From a virus, in the IMG/VR virus record IMGVR_UViG_3300028840_006907, positions 32,001-96,000 of that record: DNA of 64,000 nt; one strand, written 5' to 3'. Positions 3,239 through 59,849 of this stretch are shown here, piece after piece (positions within the stretch are counted from its first letter, which is position 1; each line of letters starts with the position of its first letter). The notes beneath the pieces were generated by a model. It searched no databases, had not been told where the DNA came from, and was given only the letters and a program-made list of their open reading frames with translations. A program made the translations under genes and the position numbers.

Positions 3239-3740
3239 TATATATACCCAATTACCTTTTTTATCCAGTAATATAACATTTTAATACTATCAAATACCAA
3301 CGTCCTATATGGTGCGTCCGTATTAATCTCTATTAAATCAGTCGTCCTATATCTTTAAACTATGGTCTATATAGTAATAAACACGATCTATAAATCAAAT
3401 AACAATTTTAAGGTAATCCTCTTACTCATCAATATCCATATCTTTATAATAAAAAACCCACACATAGCACCTATAAAAATGTGGAACCCTTTAAGGCATT
3501 TCTTAAGTAACTATGTATGGGCACTGAAAGGGATTTATACAAATCCCATTATTATCTTAATATATTAACTTACTATATGTCTATACCTATAAACATATCC
3601 CCCTATATATTACTAATTAGTAATATGAATGTAATTATCCCTATCCCCTATATCTAATAACCTATAAACTATCCATTAAGTATATCTGTATCCTATCCAT
3701 ATAATAACTCTGTAAGAGAAAATTAATATGTATCAGTATG

Positions 3741-7498: not shown

Positions 7499-7718
7499 TT
7501 TTTGTTAATCCTTTCTATTGGTTGTTATTTCATGTATACATAGAATTATGGCGGTAATAAAGCATATTCCCATAATTGGACCGATTGTCCATGACCATGA
7601 GAATGTTCCTATAGAACCTGCCATAATAGCCAGGATCATAATTATGCCTAGTGCGGTAGATATTTTTTCTTTCATGATGGGTATATCCTTTTTTATGAGT
7701 TACAAGATCTACTACAGT

Positions 7719-13567: not shown

Positions 13568-13722
13568 AATACCTCAATACCTCTCTTTTATTAAATATAA
13601 TTAACTGGAATGATTTGACTTAGATATATTTTATATATAATGGGGTGGTCATCCCCGGATTTACCGGGGCTGTCTCTGGGAGAATCGATACAAATGGCGG
13701 TGATTTAGACCACTCCATTTTA

Positions 13723-19572: not shown

Positions 19573-19915
19573 CATGAATAATGAAAAAAGTTTAGTAACT
19601 TTCCGAAGTTTTAAGAAACTTTTTCTTTGACGTTTGTTTTTTGTGGCTTTCATGAGTAATGAAAAAAGTTTAGTAACTTTCCGAAGTTTTAAAAATTTTT
19701 TCTTTCATGTAAACTTTTCCTTGTCTACATGAGTAATGAAAAAAGTTTAGTAACTTTCCGAAGTTTTAAAAATTTTTTCTTTCATGTAAACTTTTCCTTG
19801 TCTACATGAGTAATGAAATTAGTTTGGTAACTTTCCGAAGTTTTAAAAATTTTTTCTTTCATGTAAACTTTTCCTTGTCTACATGAGTAATGAAATTAGT
19901 TTGGTAACTTTCCGG
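19573..19915. repeat. tandem repeat, 77-78 bp unit, about 4.4 copies
   Basis: Unit starts (catgag/catgaa) at 19573, 19651, 19728, 19805, 19882. Confidence 0.85.
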
Positions 19916-20397: not shown

Positions 20398-20628
20398 CAG
20401 GGAACAGGGAACTGAGCACAGGGAACTGAGCACAGGGAACCGAGCACAGGGAACCGAGCACAGGGAACTGAGCACAGGGAACTGAGCACAGGGAACTGAG
20501 CACAGGGAACCGAGCACAGGGAACCGAGCACAGGGAACTGAGCACAGGGAACCGAGCACAGGGAACTGAGAACAGGGAACCGAGCACAGGGAACTGAGAA
20601 CAGGGAACTGAGAACAGGGAACCGAGCA
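20398..20628. repeat. tandem repeat, 14 bp unit (cacagggaac[t/c]gag), about 16-17 copies
   Basis: Direct reading; two unit variants differing at one T/C position. Confidence 0.85.
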
Positions 20629-20872
20629 CCTGTATCTGTGATCTCGGAAAAGTTTCGGGAAAAAAATCGGGAACGGCTCAGGGCTGAGAAATAGGTATGA
20701 ATTTTTTTGGGGTATAATTTTTGGAGTTAAACAGTTGGGGAAATTGGAGTTATCTTATGTGAGGTGATGGGATAGTTTATGGAGGGTGAAAATTTTTTGG
20801 TATAGTTTGATGGAGAAACAGGTATAATACTTATAGGACGGAAAAATTTAAGTCTAATGGTTCGAGGATCTT

Positions 20873-38923: not shown

Positions 38924-39682
38924 TTGGAGACATCTGTGAAGTATAGCGTACTTGTACCCTACTATAAACGCCTAGGGCACCTACATAATACCTTTATTTC
39001 CTTTCTACACCATTATTCAGATAGAAATGATTATGAGGTTGTCATAGCAGAAGATTATAAAAATGTCCAGAATAAAAAAGACCATGACGGTCTATCAGAA
39101 ACCATTGAGAAATTCCGTGAAAAAATACCGATAATTCATTTAACTCTTTCTATGGAAACCTGGAATCCAGCTCATGGTTTTAATGAAGCTGCAAAGTGGG
39201 CTTCTGGTGAATATTTCGTTGTAACCAATCCAGAATGTTTCCATCAAGTGAACATACTGGCTGGACTCGATAAAGAATTTGAAGAAGACCCCAATGTCTA
39301 TGTTGTATGTGGTTGTATGAATTATGTCCGTTGTAATTTTTTTATTAAAAACTTTAATGATCTAAATGGAAAATTTCAGAGATGGTACCAACACTCAATA
39401 CATAGAGCAGCCCACTATCATTTCTGTTCAGCTATTTCAAAACAGAATTGGGTAAAAATAGGAGGATTCGATGAAGACTTTGCTATGGGTATAGCCTATG
39501 ATGATGTCGATTTTAAATTAAGCATTCAAAAAGCCAAGATACCCTTTCATATCCGGGATGACCTTCTTACTATACATATTGACCATGGTTCCTTCCCATC
39601 TCCTCCAAATGCTCAGAAATTAGTTAATCGAAATAGAATCACCTATCAAAGAAAATGGGAAGGAAGTAATGAATCTTACTAG
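38924..39682 (+). CDS. putative family-2 (GT-A) glycosyltransferase
   Basis: N-terminal YSVLVPYY and GGFDEDFAMGIAYDDVDF segments resemble GT2 signatures; start codon uncertain (TTG 38924 or GTG 38936). Confidence 0.5.
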   Translation: METSVKYSVLVPYYKRLGHLHNTFISFLHHYSDRNDYEVVIAEDYKNVQNKKDHDGLSETIEKFREKIPIIHLTLSMETWNPAHGFNEAAKWASGEYFVVTNPECFHQVNILAGLDKEFEEDPNVYVVCGCMNYVRCNFFIKNFNDLNGKFQRWYQHSIHRAAHYHFCSAISKQNWVKIGGFDEDFAMGIAYDDVDFKLSIQKAKIPFHIRDDLLTIHIDHGSFPSPPNAQKLVNRNRITYQRKWEGSNESY

Positions 39683-41762
39683 TTATACCGCAGCCGACAG
39701 TATCCCGATAAAATTGATTAAGAACTTTAAATTGTTAAAGTCCATGACAACAAAAGGAGTCATCTTACCAATCCATGTCCAGTTCATACCCACAAATAGA
39801 TGTAACATGAAATGTGGATTTTGTAGCTGTGCTGAAGATGACAGAAAAACAGAAATGTCCCTTAAAAATGCTAAGAAGATCATCAGAAAATTAAAAAAAC
39901 TCGGTACTCAATCCGTAACCATCACCGGAGGAGGAGAACCACTCCTTTATCCTCATCTCCAAGAATTGTTTTCTCTGTTTAAAGATGCCGGGATAAAAAT
40001 CGGTTTTGTTACCAATGGCCTCTTATTAGGTAAATGTACCTATGAAGATGTAACCTGGTGTCGGATTTCTAATTCTGATGAAAGAAAAATGGACATGGAC
40101 TATTATCACACAATAGCTTATGCTGTTGAAGATAACCCAAACGTGGACTGGGCCTTTAGTCATGTCGTTTCTCCAAAACCAAATATCTCCGAAATAAAAC
40201 GGATCATAGAATTTGCCAATCTCCATGATTTTACCCATGTCCGATTAGTAGCTGATCTATTGAATTATAAAGAAGTAGATTTAATGCAGTTAAAAATCAC
40301 TCTTCGAGATGAAAATGTCGATGATGATAAAGTCATCTATCAAAGTAGAAATACCCCGCTCAGAGGCGGAGACTGTTATATATGCTATCTTAAACCCATG
40401 ATAGGGGCTGACTGTAATGTGTACGCTTGTTGTTTAGAGGCTAATGAACCTGTATTAATCCAGAGAAATAACGAAAGGATGTATTTATCTATAAAGGATG
40501 TTGTTCCAGGGGATTATGCTTGTGAATATGGAAAGATTTTAAATGTGTTTCATAAAGAGGGTGAAGAAGGCTTGGAAATAGTTTTGCAAAATAATAGGAC
40601 TATTTATGTTTCGAAAGATCATCTTATGCTTAAATTGACAAACCCTGAAATTAGACATAAGAGAAAGAAGTTATTATCTGACTATGAATTAGATACAATA
40701 GAATCTTCTGAATTAAGAATTGGAGATTTACTTCCGGTCAAATATAAATATGATATTAGTGAAATAAAAGAAGATACTATATCTGAAGAAGAAGCAGAAT
40801 TAATAGGATATTATGTAGCTGAAGGTTGGTCCAATGAACGAACTTGTATAGTTGATAAAAAATATCCTACTAGAACTACCACTATAGGATTTATGCTAGG
40901 GAAAGAGTCAAGAGAATATATAAGAAGATTTGAAGAAATTTGTGATATTTTGAATCTAAATTTTTCTATGACTGAACGTAGAACTGGTATGCAGTATCAG
41001 ATAGGTGCACATAAACCCTACGATGACTTAATTGTACACTGTGGTAATAAAGCAGAATTAAAAAAGATCCCTCCTTTTATTTTAAACGGCTCTGATAAAA
41101 TAAAGTGGAAATTTATTCAAGGCTATTTTGGAGGTGACGGGAATTTTCAAACTCCTTCTAAAAGCTATGATGGTTTTAAAATGAGAATGAGTACTGTCAG
41201 TAGACAACTAGCTAATGATATAATTTATCTCTTTTGTACTTTAAATATTCATGCTTCTATGAGAGTTGAGAGACGTGAAGGAAAAATGATAATAGAAGGA
41301 AGAGAGGTAAATGCTAAAGATCGGTATCATATAAATATAGGGGGAGCCTATAATTTAGAAAAAGCCCCATTCCTAAATGTAATTCAAACAAAAGAAAGAA
41401 GTCCTAAAAGAGCCCTCGGTTTTTTGAAAGATGAGGATAAGGGCATTATGTTTGTACCAGTTAAAGAGATCAGAGAGAAAAAGTTAGGAAAATTAGTAGA
41501 CATTCAAGTGGAAGGTTCAAATAAATTTATATCTTCATTTGGTATAATAGTTCATAATTGTGGCGTCCAGTATGCTCTTAAAAAGCCTTCAAAGAATCTT
41601 CCTAAGAAACTGAGCCTAGGAAGTGCTTTTGATCTTGAGAAGATAATTGAGAACAGTAATAAGCCCCTGGACGGGAGCATGTGTTATCGATGCTATTATA
41701 GTAATTATAACAAGATACTAGGATCCATCCTGGATGATACCGATCATATGGAGTTTGTATGA
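39669..41762 (+). CDS. radical SAM enzyme interrupted by an intein
   Basis: CNMKCGFC (CxxxCxxC) and TGGGEPLL in N-extein; intein blocks described separately. Confidence 0.65.
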   Translation: MNLTSYTAADSIPIKLIKNFKLLKSMTTKGVILPIHVQFIPTNRCNMKCGFCSCAEDDRKTEMSLKNAKKIIRKLKKLGTQSVTITGGGEPLLYPHLQELFSLFKDAGIKIGFVTNGLLLGKCTYEDVTWCRISNSDERKMDMDYYHTIAYAVEDNPNVDWAFSHVVSPKPNISEIKRIIEFANLHDFTHVRLVADLLNYKEVDLMQLKITLRDENVDDDKVIYQSRNTPLRGGDCYICYLKPMIGADCNVYACCLEANEPVLIQRNNERMYLSIKDVVPGDYACEYGKILNVFHKEGEEGLEIVLQNNRTIYVSKDHLMLKLTNPEIRHKRKKLLSDYELDTIESSELRIGDLLPVKYKYDISEIKEDTISEEEAELIGYYVAEGWSNERTCIVDKKYPTRTTTIGFMLGKESREYIRRFEEICDILNLNFSMTERRTGMQYQIGAHKPYDDLIVHCGNKAELKKIPPFILNGSDKIKWKFIQGYFGGDGNFQTPSKSYDGFKMRMSTVSRQLANDIIYLFCTLNIHASMRVERREGKMIIEGREVNAKDRYHINIGGAYNLEKAPFLNVIQTKERSPKRALGFLKDEDKGIMFVPVKEIREKKLGKLVDIQVEGSNKFISSFGIIVHNCGVQYALKKPSKNLPKKLSLGSAFDLEKIIENSNKPLDGSMCYRCYYSNYNKILGSILDDTDHMEFV
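40431..41558 (+). mobile_element. intein with LAGLIDADG-type homing endonuclease domain (boundaries approximate; N-terminal Cys at 40428 or 40431)
   Basis: Starts CLEANEPVLI, ends GIIVHN followed by Cys; internal IGYYVAEGW and IQGYFGGDGNF motifs. Confidence 0.6.
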
Positions 41763-43983: not shown

Positions 43984-44019
43984 TCTAGGAATGTAAAGTA
44001 TTAGAGGATTATTAAGGGG

Positions 44020-47018
44020 AGGGAAACCCCGCTCAGATGCAGGGAAGAAGATTTCATTAAGAAGTTTTAGGAAGAGCCCCGCAGAGGAGGAACCTCGCAA
44101 GATGCGGGGAAAAGGAACTTCAGGCAATTGGCTGGGATTAGCCCCGCGAAGGTGCGGGGAAAACAGTTTCCATGAACTATATTAGGGAGAGCCCCGTTGA
44201 CACGGGGAAAAACCCGTCTTTACTTAGTGAGATCGAGGAAGGAACAGCCCCGTTGATACGGGGATAAAATAATATGACTTTTACGAATCCTCTAGGGACA
44301 GCCCTGCAGAGTGCAGGGAAAAGTAACGTCTGGGAATTGTTTAGGATTAGCCCCGCGAAGGTGCGGGGAAAGCCATAGATTTTATATTGACACAGGAAAA
44401 ACCCCGGTATAGTCCGGGGAAAAGTACGTAATCAAGATGTAAGAGGATTAGACCCGGCGAGTCCGGGAAAAGATTGGCCCAATCACTATTAAGTAGGGTG
44501 GGATAGCCCCGCAGAATGCAGGGAATAGATGCCTCACTTCATACCACTGCGTCAACCCCAGTAGAGTCCGGGGAACATGAGTGTAAATCTCTGTCGTAGG
44601 TTCAACCCCGGAGAGATCCAGGGGAAATGGGTACAACTTTGTGTACAAGGGGTAGCCCCGGAGAAATCCGAGGAAAATGAGTGTAAATCTGTGTTGAGGG
44701 TCCAGCCCCGCTCAGTGCAGGGAATATTAAGGGTCAAAACCGGTTGCCCCTGCGTCAACCCCGGTGAAGTCCGGGGAACATGAGTGTAAATCTCTGTGGT
44801 AGGATCAACCCCGCAGAGTGCAGGGAAAAATTGAACTTTTTAATCAACCCTGTAACAGCCCCGGAGTCAGTTTTGACAAGTCCGGGGGAATATCACTTCG
44901 TAAAGGAGTGGCTGTCAAGGGGGCAACCCCACAGAGATGTGGGGGAAAGTAAGCCAACGTTCCGGCATAGGCATAGCCCCTGAATTTACAGAGGGCAATT
45001 TTTCCAGTGTCCAGAAGAAGATGCAGGGAGAACCCCGGAAAGTCCAGGGGAAAATGTGTCACAGAACAACTCTTTGTGATCTCCAGGGTGAACCTCGCAG
45101 AGGTGCGGGGGAAAAGTGTCAATGAATACCAGTATGAGTCAGCCCCGGTATAGCCCGGGAATAATTACTTCTAGTCTGATAGAAGGTGCAACCCCGGGAA
45201 GTCCGGGGAAATCGGTCATAGCCATCTGGACCAGGAAGAACCCCGGTGAGATCCGGGGAAAAGGACGTTTAAATCCTGACATAGTAGCTAACTGAGGCGT
45301 AGCTCCGGTCGGGTCAGCCCTGCAGAGAGCAGGGAACAAACATAGGTAATAAATCGGCACGTGACAGCCCCGCAGAGAGGCGGGGATATATAGCGTGAGT
45401 TGCAGGGTAAGGTTCAACCCTTGTTTACCAAGGGAAAAATACCGGCAGATAAGAATTTAGGATGACCCCCGGTGAAAGTCCGGGGAAAATAATTAATACG
45501 CAAAACAGCAGGGCCAGTCCCGCGAGATGCAGGGAATGTTCAGCCAGTTTGTGTAATATTTCAGGAGACGGTGGTGCAACCCTGTCAAGGACAGGGATAT
45601 GCAACATCTGTGGCTCTACGAGGATCAGCCCCGGCAAGTCCGGGGAATTATCTTTTTATAAATGCCAAAAATAACAGTTGGGAGGGGCCAATTCCGCTGA
45701 TGCAGAAAGACATTTCATAATTAATATATTTATGGAAGAGCCCCGGTGAAATCCGGGGAAGTCAAGTAATTACAGCTCGCTGACCACTGGGGGTAGCCCC
45801 GGTAAGATCCGGGGAAAAGTTTGTTTTGAAACAAACGCTAGGAACAGCCCCGCTCAGGTGCGGGAGAATCACTGCATATTTGGTTAATGGCCCCCCTGAG
45901 TCAATCCCGCTCAGGTGCGGGGAAAATAAAGAGATAGACTAATTCAATATGCAGGAAGAACCCCGCTATATGCAGGAAAATTTAAAAAGTATGGATATCT
46001 CCTTGAGTCAACCCCGGAGATCCAGGGAAATGTAGGCACTCGTTGTCCTTTGTCGAAGTGTGAAGGGCAAACCTCGTTGATACGAGGAACAAATTTAGTT
46101 TTACTTTTGAATAAAAGTGGTCAAGCCCCGCTCAGGTGCAGGGAATAGATAAGTATACCGACGATAGCCAGGACAGCACCTGTGGTTTAGCCCTGCATGT
46201 GCAGGGAATAGTTGAGTTGAAGATTGAAGAAAAAGATAAAGTAGGGTCAGCTCTGCATGTGCAGAGAATAGCCTTTCTTCAAGCGTTGACTTGGGAGTAG
46301 GTGGGGATCAGCCCTGCACATGCAGGGAATAGAATGGTGAATCAAATTCCATTTTGTCAAAGAACGGCGACAGCCCTGCCAGTGCAGGGAATATGATTTT
46401 AACGATGGTAAAATTGGGAAGGGGTCAGCCCTGCACATGCAGGGAATAGTCGCTAGTTCAAATCCAATCGCCCCGACAGGATCAGCCCTGCATACGCAGG
46501 GAATAGAAAATACTGACGATAAACTAGCGATATGGGATCAGCCCTGCATACGCAGGGATATAGCTTGACGAATGGCCGTTTTAATGCCAGGAGTAACCCC
46601 GCTGCGAGGAATAGTCATTTCAAATATATAGGTAAAGCCCCGCGAAAGAGCGGGGGTATAATATGGCGGATTTTGTTCTATTGGTGGAATCCGGGCCATC
46701 CCCGTAGATTGACACGGGGAGATCTTTTAGAAATCTACCAAGGTGCCTTTCCGGAGTCATCCCCGTATATACGGGGGAGATTTCAATTCAGGGAATTTCG
46801 GTACAAAATTGGTCGGTTTATCCCCGTATACACGGGGAATATTGTTTCAATAGGGCATAGCAGATCTAGGATCGGGGAATCCCCGCAGGGGCGGGGAACA
46901 TCTCGGATTTATTAATCAAATTCAAACGTTTTTCGGGGAATCCCCGCAGGGGCGGGGAACATTGTTTTAAGAGGTGGTAGTTACCTCGTAGGGGAATCCC
47001 CGCAGGGGCGGGGAACAT
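44020..47018 (-). CRISPR. CRISPR array 1, roughly 50 repeat-like units, strongly heterogeneous; leader-proximal repeat ggggaatccccgcaggggcggggaacat (28 nt, 3 identical copies)
   Basis: Periodic hairpin repeats with 23-33 nt spacers; leader-proximal copies at 46874, 46935, 46991; minus-strand reading matches the I-E TTCCCCGC-N4-GCGGGGAT form. Confidence 0.8.
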
Positions 47019-47127
47019 ACTAAGTCATAATGCCATTCAAATCAAAGGTTTATAGGAACCCTAATTTTCTACCAAAGAAAAATGTACTTGTCATGTATAA
47101 ATGTCAAAGAGCGTCAGAGAGAAATCC
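47019..47127 (-). promoter_or_regulatory. CRISPR leader 1, with a ~55-bp core shared with leader 2
   Basis: accctaattttctaccaaa...tataaatgtcaaagagc shared with 54587..54683; contains TTGACA on minus strand. Confidence 0.5.
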
Positions 47128-49359
47128 CTAGTGGATATACCGAATCCATTCATATCGAATTTTCATCGTTTTATAAGGAGCTTTTTTTCTCCCTGGAAAT
47201 ATGTTTCCTTCAAAAAGGAAAAATTTTTGAACAATTTTAAATTCAGCGTTTGATGGTGTCAAGCTCTGTGGTGCATAATCCGAACGCCAGTAATTATTAC
47301 AATATATAAATTTTTCTTCTCTGTCTTTTTGTATAAGGCCCGGAAACACCACTAAAACTATCTTTTCGTTTTCAATAACAATATCCCCTTGATAAATAGC
47401 TATTTCTAAATCCAGACCATCCTGCTCTATCACACGAGCATATTTCGAGAGTTTCCCATCAATCTTTACTTTAGCTTTAGGGGGAATATCAAAAGTTATC
47501 CATTCACCTTTTATGTCCTTAATGCTTTGAATAGGTTTTTTAACTGGAATTTCTTGAAAGACATGATCTTGGTATTCTGCTTTTTTAAGGATTTCTCCAT
47601 CTTTTTCCATATTAAGCAATAAAGCCTTTTCCATGATGTCTTTAAGTTCATAGAGATCTTTTTCAGTTAAGGGCTCTTTTGTTCCGAATACGATGGAACC
47701 TACATTCTCTAATCGAGCGATTTTATCAAAACCCTGTTTCCGGACAAAGTCTATGGTAATATGTTCTATTTTTCTATTTCTTGAAAGTCTTATGATTCTT
47801 ACAAATTCAGTTTTAATTGTGTCTTTGAAATTATCAAAACTTAAATGATCTTCTACGTAGGGATGATACAAATCCGCTATAAGACTTAATAAAATTTCTA
47901 TGTCTTCAGGTTTATCCTGTTTACGGTTGTAATCATAAGCTTTAATAATTTCTTGTCTCATTTCCATTAATATATCAGGAGCCATTATTTCACTTAAACT
48001 GGTAGATCCTTTTTTGTCCCGATAAAAGGGAGCTGTTGGAAGTAAGGGAATCCTGATAGCAGCACAAAGTTCTGACATTACAATTGAGGTTAAGAACAAA
48101 TTCAATCTGTCTGAATATAATGCCCTGATATTATTACGTTCTTCTTTTTTAATAGGTGGAACATAAATGTATAACCATATTTTATCTTTTTTAGGGTAAC
48201 ATCTGAAAATACGAAACATTATTTGAGAGAAGGTCACCTGACTCTTTCCATAACTTGTATTATGTAAAACAGCAGCAGGAGGCCAATCATACCCTTCATA
48301 GAATATTCTGCAAGATACGGCGACCCAGTATTTTTTATGATTACGTCTCAATAACTCTCTATTTTTTTTCTGAGTTTCCGGTGTGACTAAATCCAGTACT
48401 TTGGACGCAGGATATATTTCGTGAATAGCTTTTAAATATTTTTTAAGGGTTCCTTCCTCTCTGAACCGGTTCCCCATGTCAGGTAATATGACAATGTGTC
48501 TTTGATCTTTGTGCTCTTTCATATATCTAATGATCTGAGTAAGGGGATCTTTCCTATAGTGAGTGAAACGGAAATTGAATTCTTTGATTTTTATGATTGA
48601 GAGATAGTCATTTAATGGGATAACCCATTTTTCAAAATGATGTTTATAAGCATTGGGGACTATTTCTCCTCTGTCTGTGCGGTGGTAAGTAGCTGTATAA
48701 AAATTTACGTTACAAGTAGGTTCATGGATGGTACATACATCTCTGACAAAATCACCCAAATGAGTGGAATCTAGTGGGGTTGATTTTGAATGATGGCATT
48801 CATCTACATGTACAGTTAAATTTCTAAGGGCTTTCTTTTTTTCATAGTTGGTTAATTTTTCCCAGGTCATGACAAACCCTCTATGGGTAGCTGTAGCAAT
48901 AGGGCCTGTTATATGTTTTTCATTGTACGGGTATTTTCGAGGATCTGCTAAAAGGAATTCTTTAAGTCCTTTAATGGATTGAGGGTTTTCACTATTGAAT
49001 TTATGTTCTTTTGGTACTTCCCACAATCTTACCATACCTTTATATTTGATTTTTATTTGTCTATTTTGGGATCTGCAGAAATTTTCACCTATTTCTATTG
49101 TTGGTGCGATAAAGATATGTTTTCGAGTATTTTTAGATATTATGATTTCATCCAGGGATATGCATACTGCTAAAAAAGTTTTGCCGACTCCCCCTGGTGC
49201 ATCAAAGATCATGTATCTGAATTTTTTCCCATATTCTTTTGCATTGCATTGCCAGCCAGAGGGTATCATGATCCCTGATTCAAGTTTTTTATTATAGGTA
49301 CCAAGGTCAACCGGTTCTATTTTAATAGATTGCTGGAAAAGCGGTAATAGCTTTTTCAT
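47128..49359 (-). CDS. cas3: SF2 DExH helicase, Cas3-like, without HD nuclease domain
   Basis: Motif I FDAPGGVGKT, motif II VDECHH, motif III TAT, motif VI-like QIMFRIFR; sits between cas6e and leader 1; GAGAGGA SD. Confidence 0.5.
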   Translation of the reverse strand: MKKLLPLFQQSIKIEPVDLGTYNKKLESGIMIPSGWQCNAKEYGKKFRYMIFDAPGGVGKTFLAVCISLDEIIISKNTRKHIFIAPTIEIGENFCRSQNRQIKIKYKGMVRLWEVPKEHKFNSENPQSIKGLKEFLLADPRKYPYNEKHITGPIATATHRGFVMTWEKLTNYEKKKALRNLTVHVDECHHSKSTPLDSTHLGDFVRDVCTIHEPTCNVNFYTATYHRTDRGEIVPNAYKHHFEKWVIPLNDYLSIIKIKEFNFRFTHYRKDPLTQIIRYMKEHKDQRHIVILPDMGNRFREEGTLKKYLKAIHEIYPASKVLDLVTPETQKKNRELLRRNHKKYWVAVSCRIFYEGYDWPPAAVLHNTSYGKSQVTFSQIMFRIFRCYPKKDKIWLYIYVPPIKKEERNNIRALYSDRLNLFLTSIVMSELCAAIRIPLLPTAPFYRDKKGSTSLSEIMAPDILMEMRQEIIKAYDYNRKQDKPEDIEILLSLIADLYHPYVEDHLSFDNFKDTIKTEFVRIIRLSRNRKIEHITIDFVRKQGFDKIARLENVGSIVFGTKEPLTEKDLYELKDIMEKALLLNMEKDGEILKKAEYQDHVFQEIPVKKPIQSIKDIKGEWITFDIPPKAKVKIDGKLSKYARVIEQDGLDLEIAIYQGDIVIENEKIVLVVFPGLIQKDREEKFIYCNNYWRSDYAPQSLTPSNAEFKIVQKFFLFEGNIFPGRKKAPYKTMKIRYEWIRYIH

Positions 49360-49628: not shown

Positions 49629-50273
49629 TTAATAAGATTTATACGGTGCAATAAGCATCATACCACATCCGAAACCTTTACTCTTACCAATTCCATTATA
49701 AATAGTATTCACAAAAAGATTTTTATTGACTACCTGAAGGACTCCTCGTAAATCAATACTGAAAAAAGATACAACTTTACCATCTTTTTTTTTGAATTTA
49801 CAGAATTGAAAAGATTGAACGGAATGCTTTTGAATCATATTTTTAAAACCGTAACTTTGGCCACGTTTCTGAAGCCAATTCTTTGAGGATTCGTGAGCAA
49901 TGAAATTCCAATTATAGGGTTCATCAAGAACTTTCATTTCATTTGCCAGATCCGTCATGATTGAAACCTTTTTCCTGGTTTTCAATTTACAAACTTCGGC
50001 ATTGAGTCTGAGATCGTATTGAAGAAATATTCCAGATTTTAAATTATTTAAATCGAATACTTTTGTTTGTGTAGTGTATTCGTCCTCTGGAGGATTTGGT
50101 TTCTTTTTTGATATGATATAAAGTTCACCATTATAGAGATAATAAAGGAAATCTCTTACCCTGTTAGATCTTTGATCACCAAAAAATTCCCAGACTTTTT
50201 GATGAAGCTCATATATACCTTCGGTGGGAGAATATCTTCTCAAGCTGTCACTGTAAATTTTACTCAGAAACAT
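49629..50273 (-). CDS. cas6e: Cas6e (CasE) crRNA endoribonuclease
   Basis: MFLSKIYSD..YELHQKVWEFF..RDFLYY and C-terminal GIGKSKGFGCGMM match recollected E. coli CasE; start moved to ATG 50273. Confidence 0.75.
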   Translation of the reverse strand: MFLSKIYSDSLRRYSPTEGIYELHQKVWEFFGDQRSNRVRDFLYYLYNGELYIISKKKPNPPEDEYTTQTKVFDLNNLKSGIFLQYDLRLNAEVCKLKTRKKVSIMTDLANEMKVLDEPYNWNFIAHESSKNWLQKRGQSYGFKNMIQKHSVQSFQFCKFKKKDGKVVSFFSIDLRGVLQVVNKNLFVNTIYNGIGKSKGFGCGMMLIAPYKSY

Positions 50274-50910
50274 TCGATACCTCCTTCCATCCCATATACT
50301 CAATTCGGGATCGGTATTGTTTGGGACCGGTTACCTGATCAAAACGTTGATTGCTTTTTACTATTTTGATACTGGTATCGGTACCTTCCCAAAATATTCG
50401 GTTCTTTTCACGCCCTTTAAGACTACCATTAAGAAATTCAGGAAGAGAGTACTGTTCAAACGCCTCTGAGAGGCTCTCAGCCTTAACGATCTTAGGATCG
50501 GGTGGTATGTCATAGGAACAGCATTTCCTTCCAAGAAAGGGGGTATAGATGGGCCTATTAAGGGCTTCCATTATTTTCTTCAAAGTATAGGGACAGTTTT
50601 CATTCTCCCATATACATACGGTAAAGATGGCATTGACTAGGTAAAATCTATTCGAGACAATTCCTGGTCCGACTCTGACAATATGGAAATCTTTTAGAAT
50701 AGTACCAGGATTATCTTCCCTACAGGCAAATCCTAGTTGGGCAATCTGAGTTAATTCTTTCACCATTTCTCTTGAGACTCCAAGAGAAGCAGCGATTAAC
50801 CCGCTTACGCCAGATTTGGTAGGGTGATCATCTGTCTTTCGGGTATTACCCTGAAGGGGGAGACCCCAGGCGGATAGAGTACCCGAAAGAAGGAATAATA
50901 AATAATTCAT
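50260..50910 (-). CDS. cas5e: Cas5e (CasD)
   Basis: LSGTLSAWGLP, PTKSGVSGLIAASLG, YTPFLGRKCC match recollected E. coli CasD; AGGAG SD. Confidence 0.75.
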   Translation of the reverse strand: MNYLLFLLSGTLSAWGLPLQGNTRKTDDHPTKSGVSGLIAASLGVSREMVKELTQIAQLGFACREDNPGTILKDFHIVRVGPGIVSNRFYLVNAIFTVCIWENENCPYTLKKIMEALNRPIYTPFLGRKCCSYDIPPDPKIVKAESLSEAFEQYSLPEFLNGSLKGREKNRIFWEGTDTSIKIVKSNQRFDQVTGPKQYRSRIEYMGWKEVSNVSE

Positions 50911-50933: not shown

Positions 50934-52019
50934 TTAGAAATCGATGAATTTAATAAGTTCGTTAAGTGATCCTTCTTTTGTGAGTACATTCAAGATCCTA
51001 TAATCCATTTCATGGTAACATGAATCAAAACTACTTTTCATGTCAAGAAGGGCTTTGACAGCATTTTCCATAACCGCAGGACCTTTAATAGGAGTATGGA
51101 AGGCTTGACAGAGACTTCGTGGGGCAGTTGGAGCTTTTTCGATCATAACGAATGCTGGCCATGTTTGACTATCAGCACATCTGTTTTTATTAGCTGAGGG
51201 GGATGAAGTGGTTAATACTTCGACTATCTGTCGGATGGTTTTGATAGCTAGTTCTTTATTACCTTGAAGATTTTTCGTTAAGAGCTTGGAATTGATTACA
51301 AAGAAACTATAATAGACACCCTGGGTAAAATAGAAATTATCTAGGTGACCTGAACCTTTGGTTCCTTCTAATCCAAGGTTATCGGTAGCTGTAAAATAGT
51401 CGGTTTGGACAGATCCTATATCATTGACAGTAAAAGCGAAATTTGAGGACAGTGAAGCTTCAACATCATATTGGGGCAGTTTTGCAATCATGCGACCGGT
51501 AAGGGCTGTTCTGATTCCTGTATTTTCTTTTAAAAAGAAGAATTCTTGATCAGTGGGTTTATGCCCCTCAATAATTTTGTCAATCAGTTCTTCAATATGT
51601 TGTCTTTCGCTCGGTTGAATTTTAATGGTTTCGGTTTTAAGAAGATCAACCTTTTTTTTCTTTTTCTTTGTATTTTTATCATCTTCTTTTTCAGTGTGCT
51701 TTTTGATATCAACAAAAGTACCAATAAATTTAAATGCGTATTCTTCAGCTTTTTTAGGTGATATTCCACCATCAATTAATCTTTTCTCGACATATTTTCC
51801 AATAAGAGGAGTCTGAAGACCTATATCGATTTCGCACCTTTCAAATAGAGCCTTGTTTAAATCATATTTTCGATTTTGTGAAGACGAATAACCTCGGTTG
51901 GTATCATTAAGTTTCATTGTTTTAGGACGTCCGTCCTGGCCTCGGTTTATGCTAGATACAGCTACACCAGTGAGAAGGTGAATTAACCAGTAGGGGTCTT
52001 TAATAATAGTTTTAGACAT
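50934..52019 (-). CDS. cas7e: Cas7e (CasC) backbone subunit
   Basis: SINRGQDG, SSSQNRK, ALTGRM, FTATDNLGLEGTKGSGHLD match recollected E. coli CasC. Confidence 0.8.
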   Translation of the reverse strand: MSKTIIKDPYWLIHLLTGVAVSSINRGQDGRPKTMKLNDTNRGYSSSQNRKYDLNKALFERCEIDIGLQTPLIGKYVEKRLIDGGISPKKAEEYAFKFIGTFVDIKKHTEKEDDKNTKKKKKKVDLLKTETIKIQPSERQHIEELIDKIIEGHKPTDQEFFFLKENTGIRTALTGRMIAKLPQYDVEASLSSNFAFTVNDIGSVQTDYFTATDNLGLEGTKGSGHLDNFYFTQGVYYSFFVINSKLLTKNLQGNKELAIKTIRQIVEVLTTSSPSANKNRCADSQTWPAFVMIEKAPTAPRSLCQAFHTPIKGPAVMENAVKALLDMKSSFDSCYHEMDYRILNVLTKEGSLNELIKFIDF

Positions 52020-52045: not shown

Positions 52046-53989
52046 TTATATGTTATTTGAATATTCTCTTTCCCAGTAGAACTTGACATCTTTGCTCCAG
52101 TGGGCATACCCTTCCATGAAACTGATGATGTTAAATCCTTCCATTCGAGAAACAACATCAGCAAATACTTTCCAGTTTTTTTGTATATCCGTTTTATTGA
52201 AACTCATCATTTCGTCAACATGTCGGCGGTTAATTTTTTGAGAACCCATTTGGGCACCGAAAGATTGAGAAAAATCCAGATCCTTAGCTTTAAAAACAAT
52301 TAGTAGAAGAGGTACGAAAAGAGTCTTCATATCTTCTGATCTTAAAGCAGGGAAATGCATAGACATTTCTAAAATAAAATTCAAATAAAGGTCTTCATGT
52401 TTTAAGATATCGATGTCAAAACATCGGGTAAATACCCTATGTTTTTCTGTATTTCTAATAGTCCCGTACCAGGACAGGAATGGTTTGGTAAAGACCTGGT
52501 TAAAATGAGGTAGGTTTAATTTCCTGTATTCGATATGGGCGAAATTCTCATATTCTAATGGTTGTAGTTTAAGAGGTTTAACAACTTTTTTATTTAAGGT
52601 TTCGATAAATTGTTCCTTAAAATATTTCTGTAAACCTCTCTTTTCAGTACCTACATTTTTTTCAAATGTATCGAAAGCTTTAACTACCATCTTTTCCAAC
52701 CATTTTTCGATATTATGATTCTTGAGAACTTCATAGAAGTATTCTTCAGTTTCTGTCAGAAATTCGTGAAATATTAAAGGTTCGGTTTTATCAGTTCCCC
52801 AGAACTTTCTTATATAATTACAGGTATACCATCCTATAAGATATGAGTGTTCTCTGATATTTAAAGTAAACGCACTATCTTTATAGAGTTCTTCTGGGAT
52901 ATCGAATTTATTTTCCTCCCATCCAAAGAGTTTGGCTTTAGCCATATTATAACCGAAAGTCCATAATCCGAAATCAGTTATTCCAAGATATTCTCGGTTC
53001 TCCATGAAATGACTCACCACTAAAGCTGGAGTTAATTTTTTAGCTGGTAGTAGATAGGTCACAAGATCGAGATGGCTGGTAAAGTCCAGGGGTTTCCGGA
53101 AACCTGTTTCTTTGCCTTTTATAATGGGTGAAAGGATATGACGTGGTTTGACATAACAGTTACCATAATTCCTCGTTTTTATCTTTCTAACCATTAATTT
53201 GGAATGATTGCCACAGATAGTACATGATTCATCAAATTTATCAAAGATAAGATGAATACGTAGAGGCATTTCCCAGAGCGGGTAATAAGGATTCATCTCA
53301 TCCAGGGAAACAGTAGCTTTGTTTTTACTATCAACGGTATCACTAAGCCATGGGAGTGTTACACCTTTTGGATTTCCTCCGAATTCAAACATGGTCTTTT
53401 TAATAATAACATTAGACCATATTGTTTCCCATAACGTGGAACCGGTAATAATAGTGGTAAGAGAACCATTGGCACCGGCTGTTATCGAAGTACGGTATCC
53501 TTGGCCTCCCATAATGGCACTGAGTTGATTAAGATAAAGGGCAATTGTAGCACAGGATTGGCAAAAAGTATGTATCTTTGCTTTTTGGAAGAAATCTTTA
53601 CCAGCTTTAATTGTCGCTGTCCCTGGAGTATCAAAGAGGAGATTACCAACATTTACGATTCTTTCAAGGTCCTGTGGCCGTTTATCCTGTAAAAAACGAG
53701 GACCTTTGCCATCTAGTTCAAAGAGTTTTGGTTTAAGTTTTTCTAGGATGGCTTTTTGGTTTGGTGCTTTTTTGAATAGTTTTTTCCATTCTTTCTTACT
53801 TGTAGGAGCAAGATAAGTGTTGAAAAAACCTATGAGAAGCCGTACACCTACAGCATTGAAATCGGGTCTACCGAAATCGAGAGCTATTATAGGGTTATTA
53901 GGTTTTGAAGTTATTTTGTAGGGTGGAATGTTTTCCCTGGTACCGTCTTTTCGGATGACGGGGATCCAAGGGTCCTTAATTACATTCAT
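52046..53989 (-). CDS. cas8e: Cas8e (Cse1/CasA) large subunit with C-terminal extension, possibly fused Cse2/Cas11
   Basis: N-terminal MNVIKDPWIPV, CQSCATIALYLNQ, ESCTICG match recollected E. coli CasA; 647 aa vs about 500 in CasA; GGAGGT SD. Confidence 0.8.
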   Translation of the reverse strand: MNVIKDPWIPVIRKDGTRENIPPYKITSKPNNPIIALDFGRPDFNAVGVRLLIGFFNTYLAPTSKKEWKKLFKKAPNQKAILEKLKPKLFELDGKGPRFLQDKRPQDLERIVNVGNLLFDTPGTATIKAGKDFFQKAKIHTFCQSCATIALYLNQLSAIMGGQGYRTSITAGANGSLTTIITGSTLWETIWSNVIIKKTMFEFGGNPKGVTLPWLSDTVDSKNKATVSLDEMNPYYPLWEMPLRIHLIFDKFDESCTICGNHSKLMVRKIKTRNYGNCYVKPRHILSPIIKGKETGFRKPLDFTSHLDLVTYLLPAKKLTPALVVSHFMENREYLGITDFGLWTFGYNMAKAKLFGWEENKFDIPEELYKDSAFTLNIREHSYLIGWYTCNYIRKFWGTDKTEPLIFHEFLTETEEYFYEVLKNHNIEKWLEKMVVKAFDTFEKNVGTEKRGLQKYFKEQFIETLNKKVVKPLKLQPLEYENFAHIEYRKLNLPHFNQVFTKPFLSWYGTIRNTEKHRVFTRCFDIDILKHEDLYLNFILEMSMHFPALRSEDMKTLFVPLLLIVFKAKDLDFSQSFGAQMGSQKINRRHVDEMMSFNKTDIQKNWKVFADVVSRMEGFNIISFMEGYAHWSKDVKFYWEREYSNNI

Positions 53990-54210
53990 ATGATACCTCC
54001 GCGATTTATGAATGGTTGCGGAAATTTAATTATTTATGTTTTTACTCAACTTATTTATGTTTTTTTGCTTAGCTGAGACTTTGATTTAATTTTTTAATTA
54101 ACCCATTAGTTATAAAGTTAATTATAATCTAAAATAAATATAAATGCAACATTTTTTCAAGTACTTTATATATAACTATAATATTTCGAATTGTTTATAG
54201 CATGAGAAAT

Positions 54211-54240: not shown

Positions 54241-54264
54241 GATTATATCAGAGATGGGCTCTGA

Positions 54265-54586
54265 GACAGCCCCGGTAAAGTCCAGGGAAATAAAAATTAG
54301 TGATAATTCGGGAATCAGCAGGAGGAGAGCATCAGCCCTGCGTATGCGGGGAATAGTGTTATCGTCTTACAGGATGTAAAGCAGAGACAGCCCCGCGTAT
54401 GCGGGGAATAGAAATTAATACATCTCATAAAATCTAGCATCAGCCCCGCGTATGCGGGGAATAGTTATTTATCTATACTTCCTACAACTCCCATAACGCA
54501 TCAGCCCCGCGTATGCGGGGAATAGCTCGTTGGTTTTCCCATTCCACAAAAGTTCAACGCATCAGCCCCGCGTATGCGGGGAATAG
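54265..54586 (-). CRISPR. CRISPR array 2: 6 repeats (distal one degenerate), repeat gcatcagccccgcgtatgcggggaatag, spacers 25-33 nt
   Basis: Repeat copies at about 54265, 54329, 54385, 54437, 54498, 54559; 61-bp period for the three leader-proximal units. Confidence 0.85.
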
Positions 54587-54683
54587 ACTATAATATAATT
54601 AGTTGAAAATCAGAGAGTTACAAAGACCCTAATTTTCTACCAAAAAAAGTACTTGCCGTTTATAAATGTCAAAGAGCTTATCT
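54587..54683 (-). promoter_or_regulatory. CRISPR leader 2 with the conserved core
   Basis: Shares ~55-bp core with 47019..47127. Confidence 0.5.
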
Positions 54684-54857
54684 TTAAAGGTATAAATCCT
54701 CTTCATCCTCAGGAGCCAGATCTATATCTGAAAGAGTTCTGCTCCCACCGAAATCTAATTCTAATACTTCATCTTCTCCACCTGTATTAAAAAAATCATC
54801 TTCTTCACTTGGCTCTTTAAGAATCTCATCAGCATCGTATTCTTCGATTGGTAACAT
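54684..54857 (-). CDS. small highly acidic protein (57 aa), below ORF-track cutoff
   Basis: Hand-translated MLPIEEYDADEILKEPSEEDDFFNTGGEDEVLELDFGGSRTLSDIDLAPEDEEDLYL; immediately upstream of leader 2. Confidence 0.3.
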   Translation of the reverse strand: MLPIEEYDADEILKEPSEEDDFFNTGGEDEVLELDFGGSRTLSDIDLAPEDEEDLYL

Positions 54858-56111: not shown

Positions 56112-56444
56112 CTATAATTCAGTTACTTTAATTCCAAGATGTTTATAAAACCATTCTGCGACGATATGTCTATGGCAGAATTTTGTTTTATTTTCCCAGC
56201 ACAGGAGAATGGCATTCTCACCAAGTCGTTCATAAATTCTTTTAGGATCTAATTTATCCAGTACGTTTTCATAATAAAGTTTAATGTATTCTTTGGTATT
56301 GAGATCTTTTTTAAATTTATTTATGAGCCATCTTGGTGGAGCTAAAAGAGTAAAGTGTCTTCCTTTGAAACTGGGAGGATTTTTATATGCTATCGATACT
56401 GCATTTGGATTTTTACCTGATTTAGAGAAGTAGGATGTATTCAT
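56112..56444 (-). CDS. DUF488-like protein
   Basis: AILLCWENKTKFCHRHIVAEW resembles the LLC.E....CHR signature of DUF488; from memory. Confidence 0.45.
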   Translation of the reverse strand: MNTSYFSKSGKNPNAVSIAYKNPPSFKGRHFTLLAPPRWLINKFKKDLNTKEYIKLYYENVLDKLDPKRIYERLGENAILLCWENKTKFCHRHIVAEWFYKHLGIKVTEL

Positions 56445-59032: not shown

Positions 59033-59322
59033 AATGCCTTCTTTCTTCTTTTTCGTCTATGTTCTAAAAGTATTTTTCCCATTTCATAATTTGTGATTTC
59101 TTTGGCACCCATTTCAATAGCTCTTTTTCTTCGGCTTTCTACCAAATCGAAATGAATAAAACCGGTTCTACTTTTTTGTATCCAGTTTTTTTTCATTCCA
59201 ATCTTTTCTGCAAATTCGAGTAATTCTTTAATACTAATATCAGAAAACATGTGACAGTTTTTCACATATCTTCCACGAAGTTTCCAAAGGTTATCTTTTA
59301 ATTCATCTACATATATTGTCAT
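59029..59322 (-). CDS. DUF4031-like protein
   Basis: MTIYVD...CHMFSD...HFDL pattern recalled from DUF4031; unverified. Confidence 0.4.
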   Translation of the reverse strand: MTIYVDELKDNLWKLRGRYVKNCHMFSDISIKELLEFAEKIGMKKNWIQKSRTGFIHFDLVESRRKRAIEMGAKEITNYEMGKILLEHRRKRRKKAL

Positions 59323-59849
59323 GGTAATGTTAATCCGAATTTGTCAAAAATTCCTATGATTGCTTCAGCATTACCCATAGCATCATCTAGTGGATTATGG
59401 GTATGTTTTGTTTTTCGAAACTTCTTTTTCCAGTTCCTTTGAGCGTTGAATTTTTTTACAAGCCCACTATATAGATCCCCGATTCTCCTGGCACTATGTC
59501 CAAAAGGATTGTTATTACAAAAATGCCATAGATAATAATTTATGAATTGCCAGTCGAAAACGGGGTTATCCGAAATGAATACAATTCCTTGTTCTTTTTC
59601 ATTTATATTTTTTAACCATTGGTGAAATTTTTCTATTACTTTTTTGGGTGGAGGGAATTTTTTAACTTCTTTATATGAGAATCCTGAGACAACTAGAGCT
59701 GATTCGATAAATTTATTTGTTATAGGGCGTAATTGACTATAAAAAGTCCTGTTTAATTCTGGCTCTACAACTACCGCTCCGAAACAGACCATGGAATAAT
59801 CGCCGGGGCATGGACCGTCAGCTTCAATATCTACTGAGATAAGTTTCAT
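59319..59849 (-). CDS. DEDDh-family 3-prime to 5-prime exonuclease (DnaQ/RNase T-like)
   Basis: Exo I VDIEADG, Exo II NPVFDWQF, Exo III HNPLDDA. Confidence 0.6.
   Translation of the reverse strand: MKLISVDIEADGPCPGDYSMVCFGAVVVEPELNRTFYSQLRPITNKFIESALVVSGFSYKEVKKFPPPKKVIEKFHQWLKNINEKEQGIVFISDNPVFDWQFINYYLWHFCNNNPFGHSARRIGDLYSGLVKKFNAQRNWKKKFRKTKHTHNPLDDAMGNAEAIIGIFDKFGLTLP

Follow-up and report, generated by a model that had tools for sequence, protein, structure and literature searches.

The locus and its genes

The DNA analysed here is a 64-kb stretch from a virus (positions 32,001 to 96,000 of the IMG/VR record IMGVR_UViG_3300028840_006907; hereafter the window, to which all positions refer), in which a CRISPR array, called array 1 (44018-47020, minus strand), lies beside type I-E cas genes. 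Judged from its sequence, array 1 is a genuine CRISPR array of a phage-borne type I-E-like system with a nuclease-less superfamily 2 (SF2) helicase. An earlier note on this DNA had described how the repeats of array 1 differ from one another and keep their hairpin; it had missed the phage-borne I-E variant itself, the non-Cas3 helicase, the lack of adaptation genes nearby and the presence of the trait in a whole family. The locus is part of a very large phage-like contig of roughly 390-470 kb, and the Cas6e protein is present on the Joint Genome Institute (JGI) contig Ga0180437_10000019 (388.6 kb) and on contigs of up to 469.6 kb. Since the locus including array 1 was found at 100% identity in three independent assemblies from different samples, array 1 is not an assembly artefact.

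On the minus strand, the gene order is cas8e (52046-53989), cas7e (50934-52019), cas5e (50260-50910), cas6e (49629-50273), an open reading frame (ORF) of 51 amino acids (aa), an SF2 helicase of 743 aa (47128-49359) and then array 1, which starts 108 nucleotides (nt) past the helicase stop codon and on the strand of the cas operon. The four I-E genes matched their family models (Pfam, NCBIfam, padloc) with E-values of 1e-26 to 1e-55, so that Cas8e, Cas7e, Cas5e and Cas6e are all identified and the type I-E effector gene set in the window is complete. Cas7e passed in Pfam but, with a score of 155.9, fell short of the 178 required by NCBIfam. The called Cas6e of 214 aa reached 118.8 bits against TIGR01907 (cutoff 45.2) and, aligned to Escherichia coli CasE (4dzd), keeps the catalytic histidine (LHQ..W) and the glycine-rich loop GIGxxKxxGCG, which agrees with the earlier claim of a genuine CRISPR array next to a Cas6e gene.

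Cas8e (647 aa) is about 140 aa longer than usual. When a signal of a Cas11 fusion was looked for, its C-terminal ~270 aa showed no recognisable family and no detectable similarity to Cse2, and no separate cas11/cse2 gene was found between cas8e and cas7e; the sequence leaves room for a cas11 fused into Cas8e, with no signal of it seen. A perfect sigma-70-like box (TTGCAT-17-TATAAT) lies ahead of cas8e at 54149-54121 (minus strand).

The helicase occupies the position of cas3 and has a DECH box. Its motif I lies at about residue 54, the ATPase motifs opening the protein, and no HD or other nuclease domain was found within the 743 aa. The sole Cas3 signal was a faint padloc match (E=0.006), and an assignment to Cas3 or DinG specifically was rejected after a PDB sequence search, padloc, an AlphaFold model (predicted local distance difference test score 67) and Foldseek had pointed to a generic SF2 protein only. 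Among the best 25 of the 36 padloc families matched by the 92 ORFs of the window, there was no cas1, cas2, cas3 or cas4.

The repeats of array 1

Array 1 comprises about 56 repeat-spacer units, 54 of which were scored. It reads on the minus strand, which corrects the earlier note, and each unit consists of nnnUU, a 6-bp stem, a loop, the 3' arm and an 8-nt handle of the form xUxxxCCn. The loops measure 4-8 nt, except for one of 17 nt where the unit has an insertion; the period is 48-64 nt, and the spacers are unique except for one that is present in three copies. A covariance model built from 36 perfect-stem units and run unfiltered over the whole window returned, at E<0.01, 53 units in array 1, six in a second array (array 2) and one elsewhere in the 64 kb, and parsing by dynamic programming, done separately, counted 54 in array 1. 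That there is one leader, that the units share one architecture and that the period is regular argues for a single CRISPR array, as the earlier note had assumed, and not for several unrelated arrays or a non-CRISPR repeat family.

The repeat sequences are distinct in 53 of the 54 scored units, and they comprise 49 different hairpins and 22 stem combinations. Over 25 fixed columns, two repeats are on average 64% identical, and the near-identity expected of CRISPR repeats is absent; the heterogeneity is indeed far beyond that of a degenerate terminal repeat, as had been claimed. All stems reported earlier (CCCCGC/GCGGGG, CCCCGT/ACGGGG, CCCTGC/GCAGGG, CTCTGC/GCAGAG and CCCCGG/CCGGGG) are present, and CCCTTG/CAAGGG, CCCTGT/ACAGGG, CCTCGT/ACGAGG, CCCCAC/GTGGGG and TTCTGC/GCGGAA were found in addition.

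From the leader outwards, the array can be divided into blocks A to D, all on the minus strand. Block A (46871-47020) holds three repeats ATGTT CCCCGC CCCT GCGGGG ATTCCCC with spacers of about 27-32 nt; their 28-nt cores are identical, as the earlier note had stated for the three leader-proximal repeats. Block B (46690-46844) contains three CCCCGT/ACGGGG repeats, and its unit 46812-46844 carries the exact E. coli I-E handle ATAAACCG. After two odd units follows block C (46116-46564) with eight tetraloop repeats CTATT CCCTGC nnnn GCAGGG CTGAyCC, one of which has the stem CTCTGC/GCAGAG; these repeats resemble those of array 2. The remainder, block D (44018-46094), is made up of about 38 very heterogeneous repeats with G-poor loops of 5-6 nt (consensus AYYUYN), and its spacers are mostly 19-21 nt long, interleaved with spacers of ~26 and ~32 nt.

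The proposed divergence with distance from the leader is not gradual, as identity to repeat 1 is about 0.65 by unit 4 and flat beyond. No similarity between neighbours was detected among block-D repeats (lag-1 permutation p=0.78), and because neighbours are no more alike than distant units, the unconstrained positions appear to be saturated.

Tandem Repeats Finder covered only 263 nt of the 3-kb array, and an Rfam scan of the window at gathering thresholds identified no CRISPR-DR or other family. A protein-coding reading of the array was considered and rejected, as the ORFs running through the repeats had no family matches. The ORFs that cross the array (46532-46915, plus strand; 44844-45122 and 45139-45417, minus strand; 92-127 aa), one of which is a called gene in public annotations, are almost certainly spurious.

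Stem pairing and folding

Covariation was scored on 60 units from array 1, array 2 and the solitary repeat that lies outside both. Stem cells were paired in 98.3%, compared with 86.9 +/- 1.1% after shuffling the 3' arms among units, a level reached in 0/500 shuffles, and pairing was 38-61% when the partner was slid by 1-3 columns. The claim that the hairpin is kept by paired stem changes thus stands beyond both controls. Changes on both sides affected five of the six stem pairs and 41 cells, compared with 11.5 expected (0/500 shuffles), a cell count that overstates independent events because the CCCCGC, CCCCGG, CCCCGT and CCCTGC classes are inherited lineages. From stem types that occur once (CTCTGC/GCAGAG, CCTCGT/ACGAGG, CCCCAC/GTGGGG, CCCTTG/CAAGGG, CCCTGT/ACAGGG and TTCTGC/GCGGAA), at least six independent compensatory events can be counted. 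The pair that closes the loop was C-G (34 units), G-C (19) or U-A (7) and in no unit unpaired, and these classes are inherited lineages; at the fourth stem pair, 37 units have C-G, 11 U-A and 10 U.G, and one unit is mispaired.

Alignment and folding of the repeats, a check that the earlier note had proposed, gave the expected hairpin in 51 of 54 units, with a mean of -10.9 kcal/mol compared with -4.3 for shuffled sequences and -1.75 for spacers. The arms are perfectly Watson-Crick in 34 of the 54.

In 46116-46564 and 54381-54588 (minus strand), tetraloops that sit between perfect palindromic arms are reverse-complementary to one another (ACAT/ATGT and ATAC/GTAT). This suggests that hairpin inversion or template switching at palindromes, at the level of the DNA, also contributes, and the same process can copy one stem arm onto the other. 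It cannot explain the handle, the wobble bias or the loop composition described below.

Sequence constraints outside the pairing

The earlier note had proposed that the structure is under selection and the sequence is not. The first part held, whereas the second did not, as a number of positions are conserved. In the handle, U2 is found in 54/54 units, C7 in 98% and C6 in 83%, and positions 1, 3, 4, 5 and 8 carry only 0.2-0.5 bit; U2, C6 and C7 are the bases at the same positions of the E. coli handle AUAAACCG, and the most distal units show these constraints as well. The two bases before the stem (U-1/U-2) are U in 83% of units, and stem positions C1-C3 with their G partners are more than 90% conserved. 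The 5-6 nt loops of block D contain 5% G compared with 18% in spacers, and their position 1 is usually A.

Where a stem changed on a single side, G.U/U.G exceeded C.A/A.C by 17 to 4 in array 1 and by 53 to 10 over all arrays, a bias whose nominal p of 3e-8 is too optimistic, as the counts include inherited copies. DNA-level or neutral processes should yield both kinds equally, and the wobble bias therefore argues for selection on the minus-strand RNA. These constraints point to selection that would act on the minus-strand RNA, on its sequence as well as its shape.

Spacer length classes

The inter-hairpin distance was defined as the stretch between two consecutive stems; in canonical I-E arrays it is 45 nt, the sum of handle (8 nt), spacer (32 nt) and flank (5 nt). 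The spacers of array 1 had been described as shrinking from about 28-33 nt near the leader to about 23-27 nt distally, but instead form three classes of about 19-21, 25-28 and 30-35 nt that are interleaved along the array. As inter-hairpin distances, the short class spans 31-34 nt (23 spacers, 16 of them exactly 32), the middle class 36-41 nt (15) and the long class 43-48 nt (13); distances of 35 or 42 nt do not occur, and spacers of ~32 nt make up only about a quarter of the array. In L005, one of the related contigs described below, the respective classes span 31-34 nt (7), 37-40 nt (11) and 42-46 nt (24). Fitted peaks lie at 32.2/38.7/45.2 in array 1 and at 32.1/38.6/45.1 in L005, and in each of the two the periodicity was reached in 0/20,000 within-period randomisations (jitter-null p<5e-5). 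L005 can be regarded as an independent test because its spacers are almost entirely different and its Cas7 is only 57% identical.

The step between classes, ~6.5 nt, is near the 6-nt footprint of one Cas7. E. coli CRISPR RNAs (crRNAs) shortened by 6, 12 or 18 nt form Cascades with fewer Cas7 (PMC5159557). Taken with the step, this suggests that the length classes correspond to guides of ~19, 26 and 32 nt in Cascades with 4, 5 or 6 Cas7 subunits.

Leaders, array 2 and the solitary repeat

The leader of array 1 (47021-47127, minus strand) carries the motif GCTCTTTGACAT at about 47101-47112. In six aligned leaders, those of the window and of the related contigs L003, L004, L005, L011 and L012, the box G[CT]TCTTTGA[CA]AT is invariant; it resembles a -35 element and lies ~100 nt before the first repeat. 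The leaders of the window and L005 are 72% identical over 118 nt.

Array 2 (54260-54588, minus strand) lies upstream of cas8e and consists of five leader-proximal repeats of the same hairpin, CTATT CCCCGC ATAC GCGGGG CTGATGC, one of which has a C.A mismatch, and a block-D-type terminal unit. Its near-uniform hairpins contrast with the heterogeneous array 1. The leader of array 2 (54589-54690, minus strand) is a duplicate of the array-1 leader including GCTCTTTGACAT. The duplicated leader, the make-up of array 2 and the block order of array 1 fit rare growth at the leader end and long persistence of old units.

A solitary block-D-type repeat, TCAT CCCCGG ATTTA CCGGGG CTGTCTC, was found at 13646-13679 (plus strand; 27.9 bits). 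It is intergenic, between two minus-strand genes, with a TTGACT-15-TATAAT-like box directly upstream, and two array-2 units have an identical handle. No match elsewhere in the window was found for the 20-32 nt downstream of the repeat.

Related phage loci

Relatives were identified by word-indexed protein searches, from which six contigs were taken (L003, L004, L005, L011, L012 and L013). Their Cas7 homologues are 57-65% and their helicase homologues 28-59% identical to those of the window. L003 is syntenic with the window over cas6e, helicase, array, a 54-aa gene, a sulfotransferase, a radical SAM gene and a gene of roughly 1,540 aa. In L004, cas8e-cas7e-cas5e-cas6e are followed directly by the array, without a helicase, and L005 has cas7e-cas5e-cas6e-helicase and then at least 44 units up to the contig end. 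The helicases of L011, L012 and L013 are 33-37% identical to that of the window, and the order there is cas8e, cas7e, cas5e, cas6e, a ~200-aa gene of no known family, helicase and a 110-aa gene, followed in L011 and L012 by leader and array up to the contig break. No remnant of the ~200-aa gene was found at the window locus, and no cas1 or cas2 adjoins the cas genes in the six relatives. The 110-aa gene had a weak match to a helix-turn-helix domain.

The repeats are heterogeneous in all five relatives with readable arrays, L003, L004, L005, L011 and L012, the last with one repeat only. Stems in L004 include CCCTCT/AGAGGG, CTCCTT/AAGGAG, CCCTGT/ACAGGG, CCCCCA/TGGGGG, CCCCGC/GCGGGG, CCCTAT/ATAGGG and others, those in L005 are TCCCAC/GTGGGA, TCCCGC/GCGGGA, TCCTGC/GCAGGA and TCCTAC/GTAGGA, and the repeats of L011 vary mainly in the handle. 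The handle xUxxxCC is kept in all arrays of relatives that were judged, and the repeats of each relative differ along with its Cas6e. Across these contigs, heterogeneous repeats are thus seen as a family-wide trait. The comparison with related genomes that the earlier note had proposed came out in part: heterogeneous hairpin repeats are common to the relatives and a few spacers are shared, whereas most are not.

Searches beyond these contigs gave little. GenBank phages contained no DNA match, and Cas7 matches there were distant (<37%) and lay in ordinary enterobacterial I-E records; an IMG/VR peptide scan with Cas7 returned nothing, and a word-indexed search with Cas6e returned only Cas6e itself.

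A few further features lie around the locus. Upstream of the cas operon, a DEDDh/RNase T-like exonuclease (59319-59849, minus strand) matched a 'Cas-associated' padloc model with E=9e-8, and a DUF488 protein (56112-56444, minus strand) is also found upstream of cas8e in L004 and L011. A 697-aa radical-SAM protein (39669-41762, plus strand) had viperin-like padloc matches and weak intein/LAGLIDADG signals; its gene is flanked by glycosyltransferase, methyltransferase and sulfotransferase genes, and this neighbourhood is syntenic in L003. Tandem repeats unrelated to CRISPR are present at 19573-19914 and 20404-20629, with a 77-nt unit in 4.4 copies (93% identity) and the 14-nt unit ACAGGGAACTGAGC in 16 copies, respectively.

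Shared spacers, targets and host

Orthologous spacers of the window and L003 are 87% identical over 45 nt and 74% over 69 nt, and one spacer is shared between the window and L005, although the helicase proteins are only 55-59% identical. The spacer TACnACAGAGATTTACACTC, present in three copies in array 1 (44573-44809, minus strand), was also found by eye two or three times in L003 (~3500-3590) and once in L004 (~7665-7700). At 55-65% protein identity, neutral DNA should no longer align, and the shared spacers and the leader are therefore probably under constraint.

One spacer that is conserved in L003, GGGTTGATTAAAAAGTTCAA, matches 17 of 20 nt at 54085-54104, 16 nt downstream of the TTGCAT-17-TATAAT box ahead of cas8e. 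The match is borderline, as the best of 20 shuffles reached 16, and no equivalent of it was found in L004. As a lead only, it could indicate autoregulation by Cascade.

The leader-proximal repeat was searched for in 185,579 species genomes and gave five single matches, with no host that has it as an array repeat. Two of these (Desulfobacterales, Ectothiorhodospira) are degenerate or isolated I-E repeats of unrelated bacteria; the other three, which were not looked into, lie in a second Ectothiorhodospira, in Nocardioides and in Actinomyces. In viral sequences, the leader-proximal repeat had no matches.

Origin and maintenance of the array

Repeats of ordinary arrays stay identical because the first repeat is copied whenever a spacer is acquired, while older units disappear. 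Array 1 is most plausibly an old array that is rarely or never refreshed by new spacers and in which drift has saturated the repeats while selection kept what Cas6e processing and Cascade loading require; a probability of roughly 0.7 is given to this reading. Transcription would most likely proceed from the conserved leader along the minus strand, in the direction of the cas operon, and Cas6e would cut at the 3' base of each hairpin, presumably in all variants. With little or no addition of units, and thus without turnover by acquisition, old repeats would drift to saturation wherever proteins do not read them. What survives would be the functional minimum, namely a paired, G/C-rich 6-bp stem in which G.U is allowed, two U on its 5' side, a G-poor loop and the handle bases U2, C6 and C7. 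The order of blocks A, B, C and D, with only the first three repeats identical, may reflect occasional growth at the leader end followed by a decay of similarity, with acquisition in trans or recombination as possible sources of the growth. The distance classes of ~32, 39 and 45 nt would give crRNAs for Cascades with 4, 5 and 6 Cas7, and with no nuclease in the locus, these complexes probably bind and silence their targets or act together with the helicase, and do not shred DNA. The earlier picture of an old, recombining array is thus kept as to its age; for recombination the support is limited, coming from one three-copy spacer, and block-D repeats show no neighbour similarity.

Several observations weigh against this reading. 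Three or four units of array 1 are damaged: 46587-46616 has almost no loop, a unit at ~44975 is bulged, one at ~44060-44090 lacks its 5' half, and a possible fourth may be hidden in a 47-nt gap near 45290. The detection of units made use of pairing, a bias that is small because the regular period leaves only ~4 of ~58 positions unaccounted for, and the covariation and wobble counts include inherited, non-independent units. Folding energies of sense and antisense strands did not differ significantly. No length periodicity was seen among the 16 usable values of L004 (31-38 nt), and the majority of spacers are not shared by relatives. When the 58 spacers of both arrays were compared with the masked window, no self-target exceeded shuffled controls save one borderline case, and scans of public collections with five spacer patterns found nothing but the phage itself and matches attributable to chance. 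Among these scans, TACnACAGAGATTTACACTC had 10 chance-like matches in viral contigs with no repeat context, three leader-proximal spacers (with N at every sixth position) had no viral matches, and one spacer scanned in metagenomes found only the phage itself. Furthermore, the negative result for Cas1/Cas2 covers the 64-kb window, and the genome of roughly 470 kb could hold them elsewhere.

A more far-reaching proposal is that array 1 serves as a vertically inherited, largely hard-wired library of guides, in which the proteins would read no more than the hairpin shape and three handle bases and so leave the repeats free to drift. Mini-Cascades with 4, 5 or 6 Cas7, built on the three spacer lengths, would act with the nuclease-free helicase to silence conserved genes of the host or of rival phages instead of giving adaptive immunity, and the multi-copy guide, kept across phages at about 60% protein identity, would mark a key target. 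This is possible, but on balance doubtful.

Blocks C and D (~2 kb) might instead be a non-functional fossil, with only the leader-proximal units at work and the hairpins kept at the DNA level, by repair of G/C-rich palindromes through template switching or quasipalindrome correction and by gene conversion, instead of by selection on the RNA. The lack of identified targets, the few broken units, the saturated positions with distal neighbours no more alike than distant units, the hairpin-inversion signature in the reverse-complementary ACAT/ATGT and ATAC/GTAT loops of perfect palindromes, the perfectly Watson-Crick arms in 34/54 units and the equal sense and antisense energies are all in line with it. 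However, handle U2 (100%), C7 (98%), C6 (83%) and U-1/U-2 lie outside the palindrome, beyond the reach of DNA-level correction, and hold distally as well; only one strand tolerates G.U while avoiding C.A (53 vs 10), and in the distal loops G is scarce on the sense strand and inversions are absent. Inter-hairpin distances show a sharp peak at 32 nt and fall into the same classes in L005, L003 and L004 retain one distal spacer, and relatives with only 33-59% helicase identity still have the architecture. A fossil is thus unlikely, and an old array maintained by selection on its RNA remains the preferred reading.

It is still less probable that the array acts as an RNA decoy made of anti-CRISPR repeat mimics, and not as a source of guides for the complex of the phage itself. 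Its many units of hairpin and handle would then titrate a host I-E system's Cas6e, Cas5 and Cas7 by drawing them into non-productive complexes that contain short spacers. In favour of this, the array is carried by a phage and has dozens of units with short (~20 nt) spacers, a solitary repeat lies elsewhere in the genome, and neither a nuclease nor targets were found. E. coli crRNAs shortened by 12 nt gave no protection against M13 and no block of plasmid transformation in standard assays (PMC5159557), which also counts for a decoy. On the other hand, a conserved leader and complete, apparently intact Cascade genes adjoin the array and co-vary with it across relatives, a decoy would have no use for the conservation and multiple copies of some spacers across phages, and no host genome with a matching repeat was found.

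Least likely of all is a mosaic of several arrays captured from different sources, whether hosts or other phages, and brought together by recombination, in which each piece would have kept a repeat and a spacer-length ruler of its own. Blocks A/B/C/D do differ in loops, handles and typical spacer lengths, and array 2 shares the block-C type and ends in a block-D-type unit. Within block D, however, stem classes and the three length classes are all mixed at the level of single units, L005 has the same three classes within one repeat family, the invariant positions are common to all blocks, and no external array with any of these repeats was found. Blocks ordered by similarity would arise just as well if the first repeat mutated and later acquisitions then copied the mutated form.

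Comparison with known systems

The closest known counterpart is the I-E Cascade of E. coli K-12 (repeat GAGTTCCCCGCGCCAGCGGGGATAAACCG), which has the same cas8e, cas7e, cas5e and cas6e in the same order, the same repeat plan, in which UU precedes a 6-bp CCCCGC-type stem that carries a tetraloop and is followed by the 8-nt handle, and the catalytic histidine of Cas6e in common. The canonical inter-hairpin distance of 45 nt (32-nt spacer) corresponds to one of the three classes of array 1. Unlike canonical I-E, the phage system has no HD-helicase Cas3, no separate Cas11 and no cas1/cas2 in the window, and array 1 is phage-encoded, with repeats that are nearly all different and spacers mostly of 19-21 or 25-28 nt. 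The canonical repeat measures 28-29 nt, with a G/C stem of 6-7 bp and a tetraloop; this architecture is kept in all units of array 1, but their loops have 4-8 nt and their handle is conserved only at U2/C6/C7.

According to a study on huge phages (Al-Shayeb et al. 2020, PMC7162821), CRISPR systems of such phages usually lack Cas1/2/4, one I-C variant has a helicase in place of Cas3, the arrays are compact with a median of six repeats, and repression without cleavage has been proposed for these systems. The I-C variant and the window system are alike, both being found in huge phages, lacking adaptation genes and having a helicase that replaces Cas3, whereas the I-C variant lacks Cas6 and the window system is I-E with Cas6e and ~56 units compared with the median of six. 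The passages of that study that matched the search terms do not mention hairpin-keeping repeat heterogeneity or spacer-length classes.

Type IV-A systems are plasmid-borne, with a DinG helicase, no nuclease and no adaptation module, and obtain spacers, if any, through the Cas1-Cas2 of another system. They are alike in logic, combining a Cascade-like complex with a helicase, without a nuclease, on a mobile element. They differ in that the Cas proteins here are those of I-E (Cas8e/7e/5e/6e) and not Csf, and in that the helicase is not recognisably DinG. To our knowledge, type IV arrays have uniform repeats.

Phage RNA anti-CRISPRs are repeat-like decoy RNAs that mimic the repeat of the host and have no cognate cas genes, whereas here cognate cas genes adjoin the array and no host genome with a matching repeat was found. 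CreR/CreTA-type cr-like RNAs (Shmakov 2023, PMC10120712) are guides flanked by degenerate repeats and partly complementary to a cas promoter; the degenerate and solitary repeats near the cas genes here, and the match of GGGTTGATTAAAAAGTTCAA downstream of the cas8e promoter-like site, are reminiscent of them. That match is borderline, however, and had no equivalent in L004, both kinds of element consist of one or two units compared with 56 here, and the cas genes here are complete.

Compensatory stem changes have been described between CRISPR repeat families of different genomes (Kunin et al. 2007, PMC1896005), whereas here they occur among the units of one array. Spacer length sets the number of Cas7 in engineered Cascades (Kuznedelov 2016, PMC5159557; Luo 2016, PMC5009729; Songailiene 2019, PMC6859484), and the stoichiometry of crRNAs of altered length is known from engineered E. 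coli and Streptococcus thermophilus systems. The natural classes, seen here in sequence alone and about 6/7 and 13 nt shorter than the canonical length, resemble the engineered -6 and -12 crRNAs. Those Cascades are laboratory constructs, whereas here three lengths are found in one natural array, with a step nearer 6.5 than 6 nt. Within the open-access full-text literature, there was no I-E array with nearly all-different repeats that keep the hairpin and three handle bases, no description of an I-E-plus-helicase phage family and no case of several spacer-length classes coexisting naturally in one array.

Implications

The identical repeats of ordinary arrays reveal nothing about which of their positions matter. 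The ~110 diverged repeats of array 1, array 2, L003, L004 and L005 can be regarded as a natural mutational scan of the I-E system, according to which stem pairing is needed and stem identity is not, G.U is allowed, the loop is G-poor and the handle needs only U2, C6 and C7. Standard CRISPR finders, which need near-identical repeats, might truncate or miss such arrays. The length classes are apparently the first natural hint of Cascades with different numbers of Cas7 coexisting in one system, and they make the smallest working size of Cascade testable with natural sequences. As a phage-borne I-E variant that combines Cas8e-7e-5e-6e with a non-Cas3 helicase and a conserved leader, the family appears to parallel type IV and the I-C variant of huge phages.

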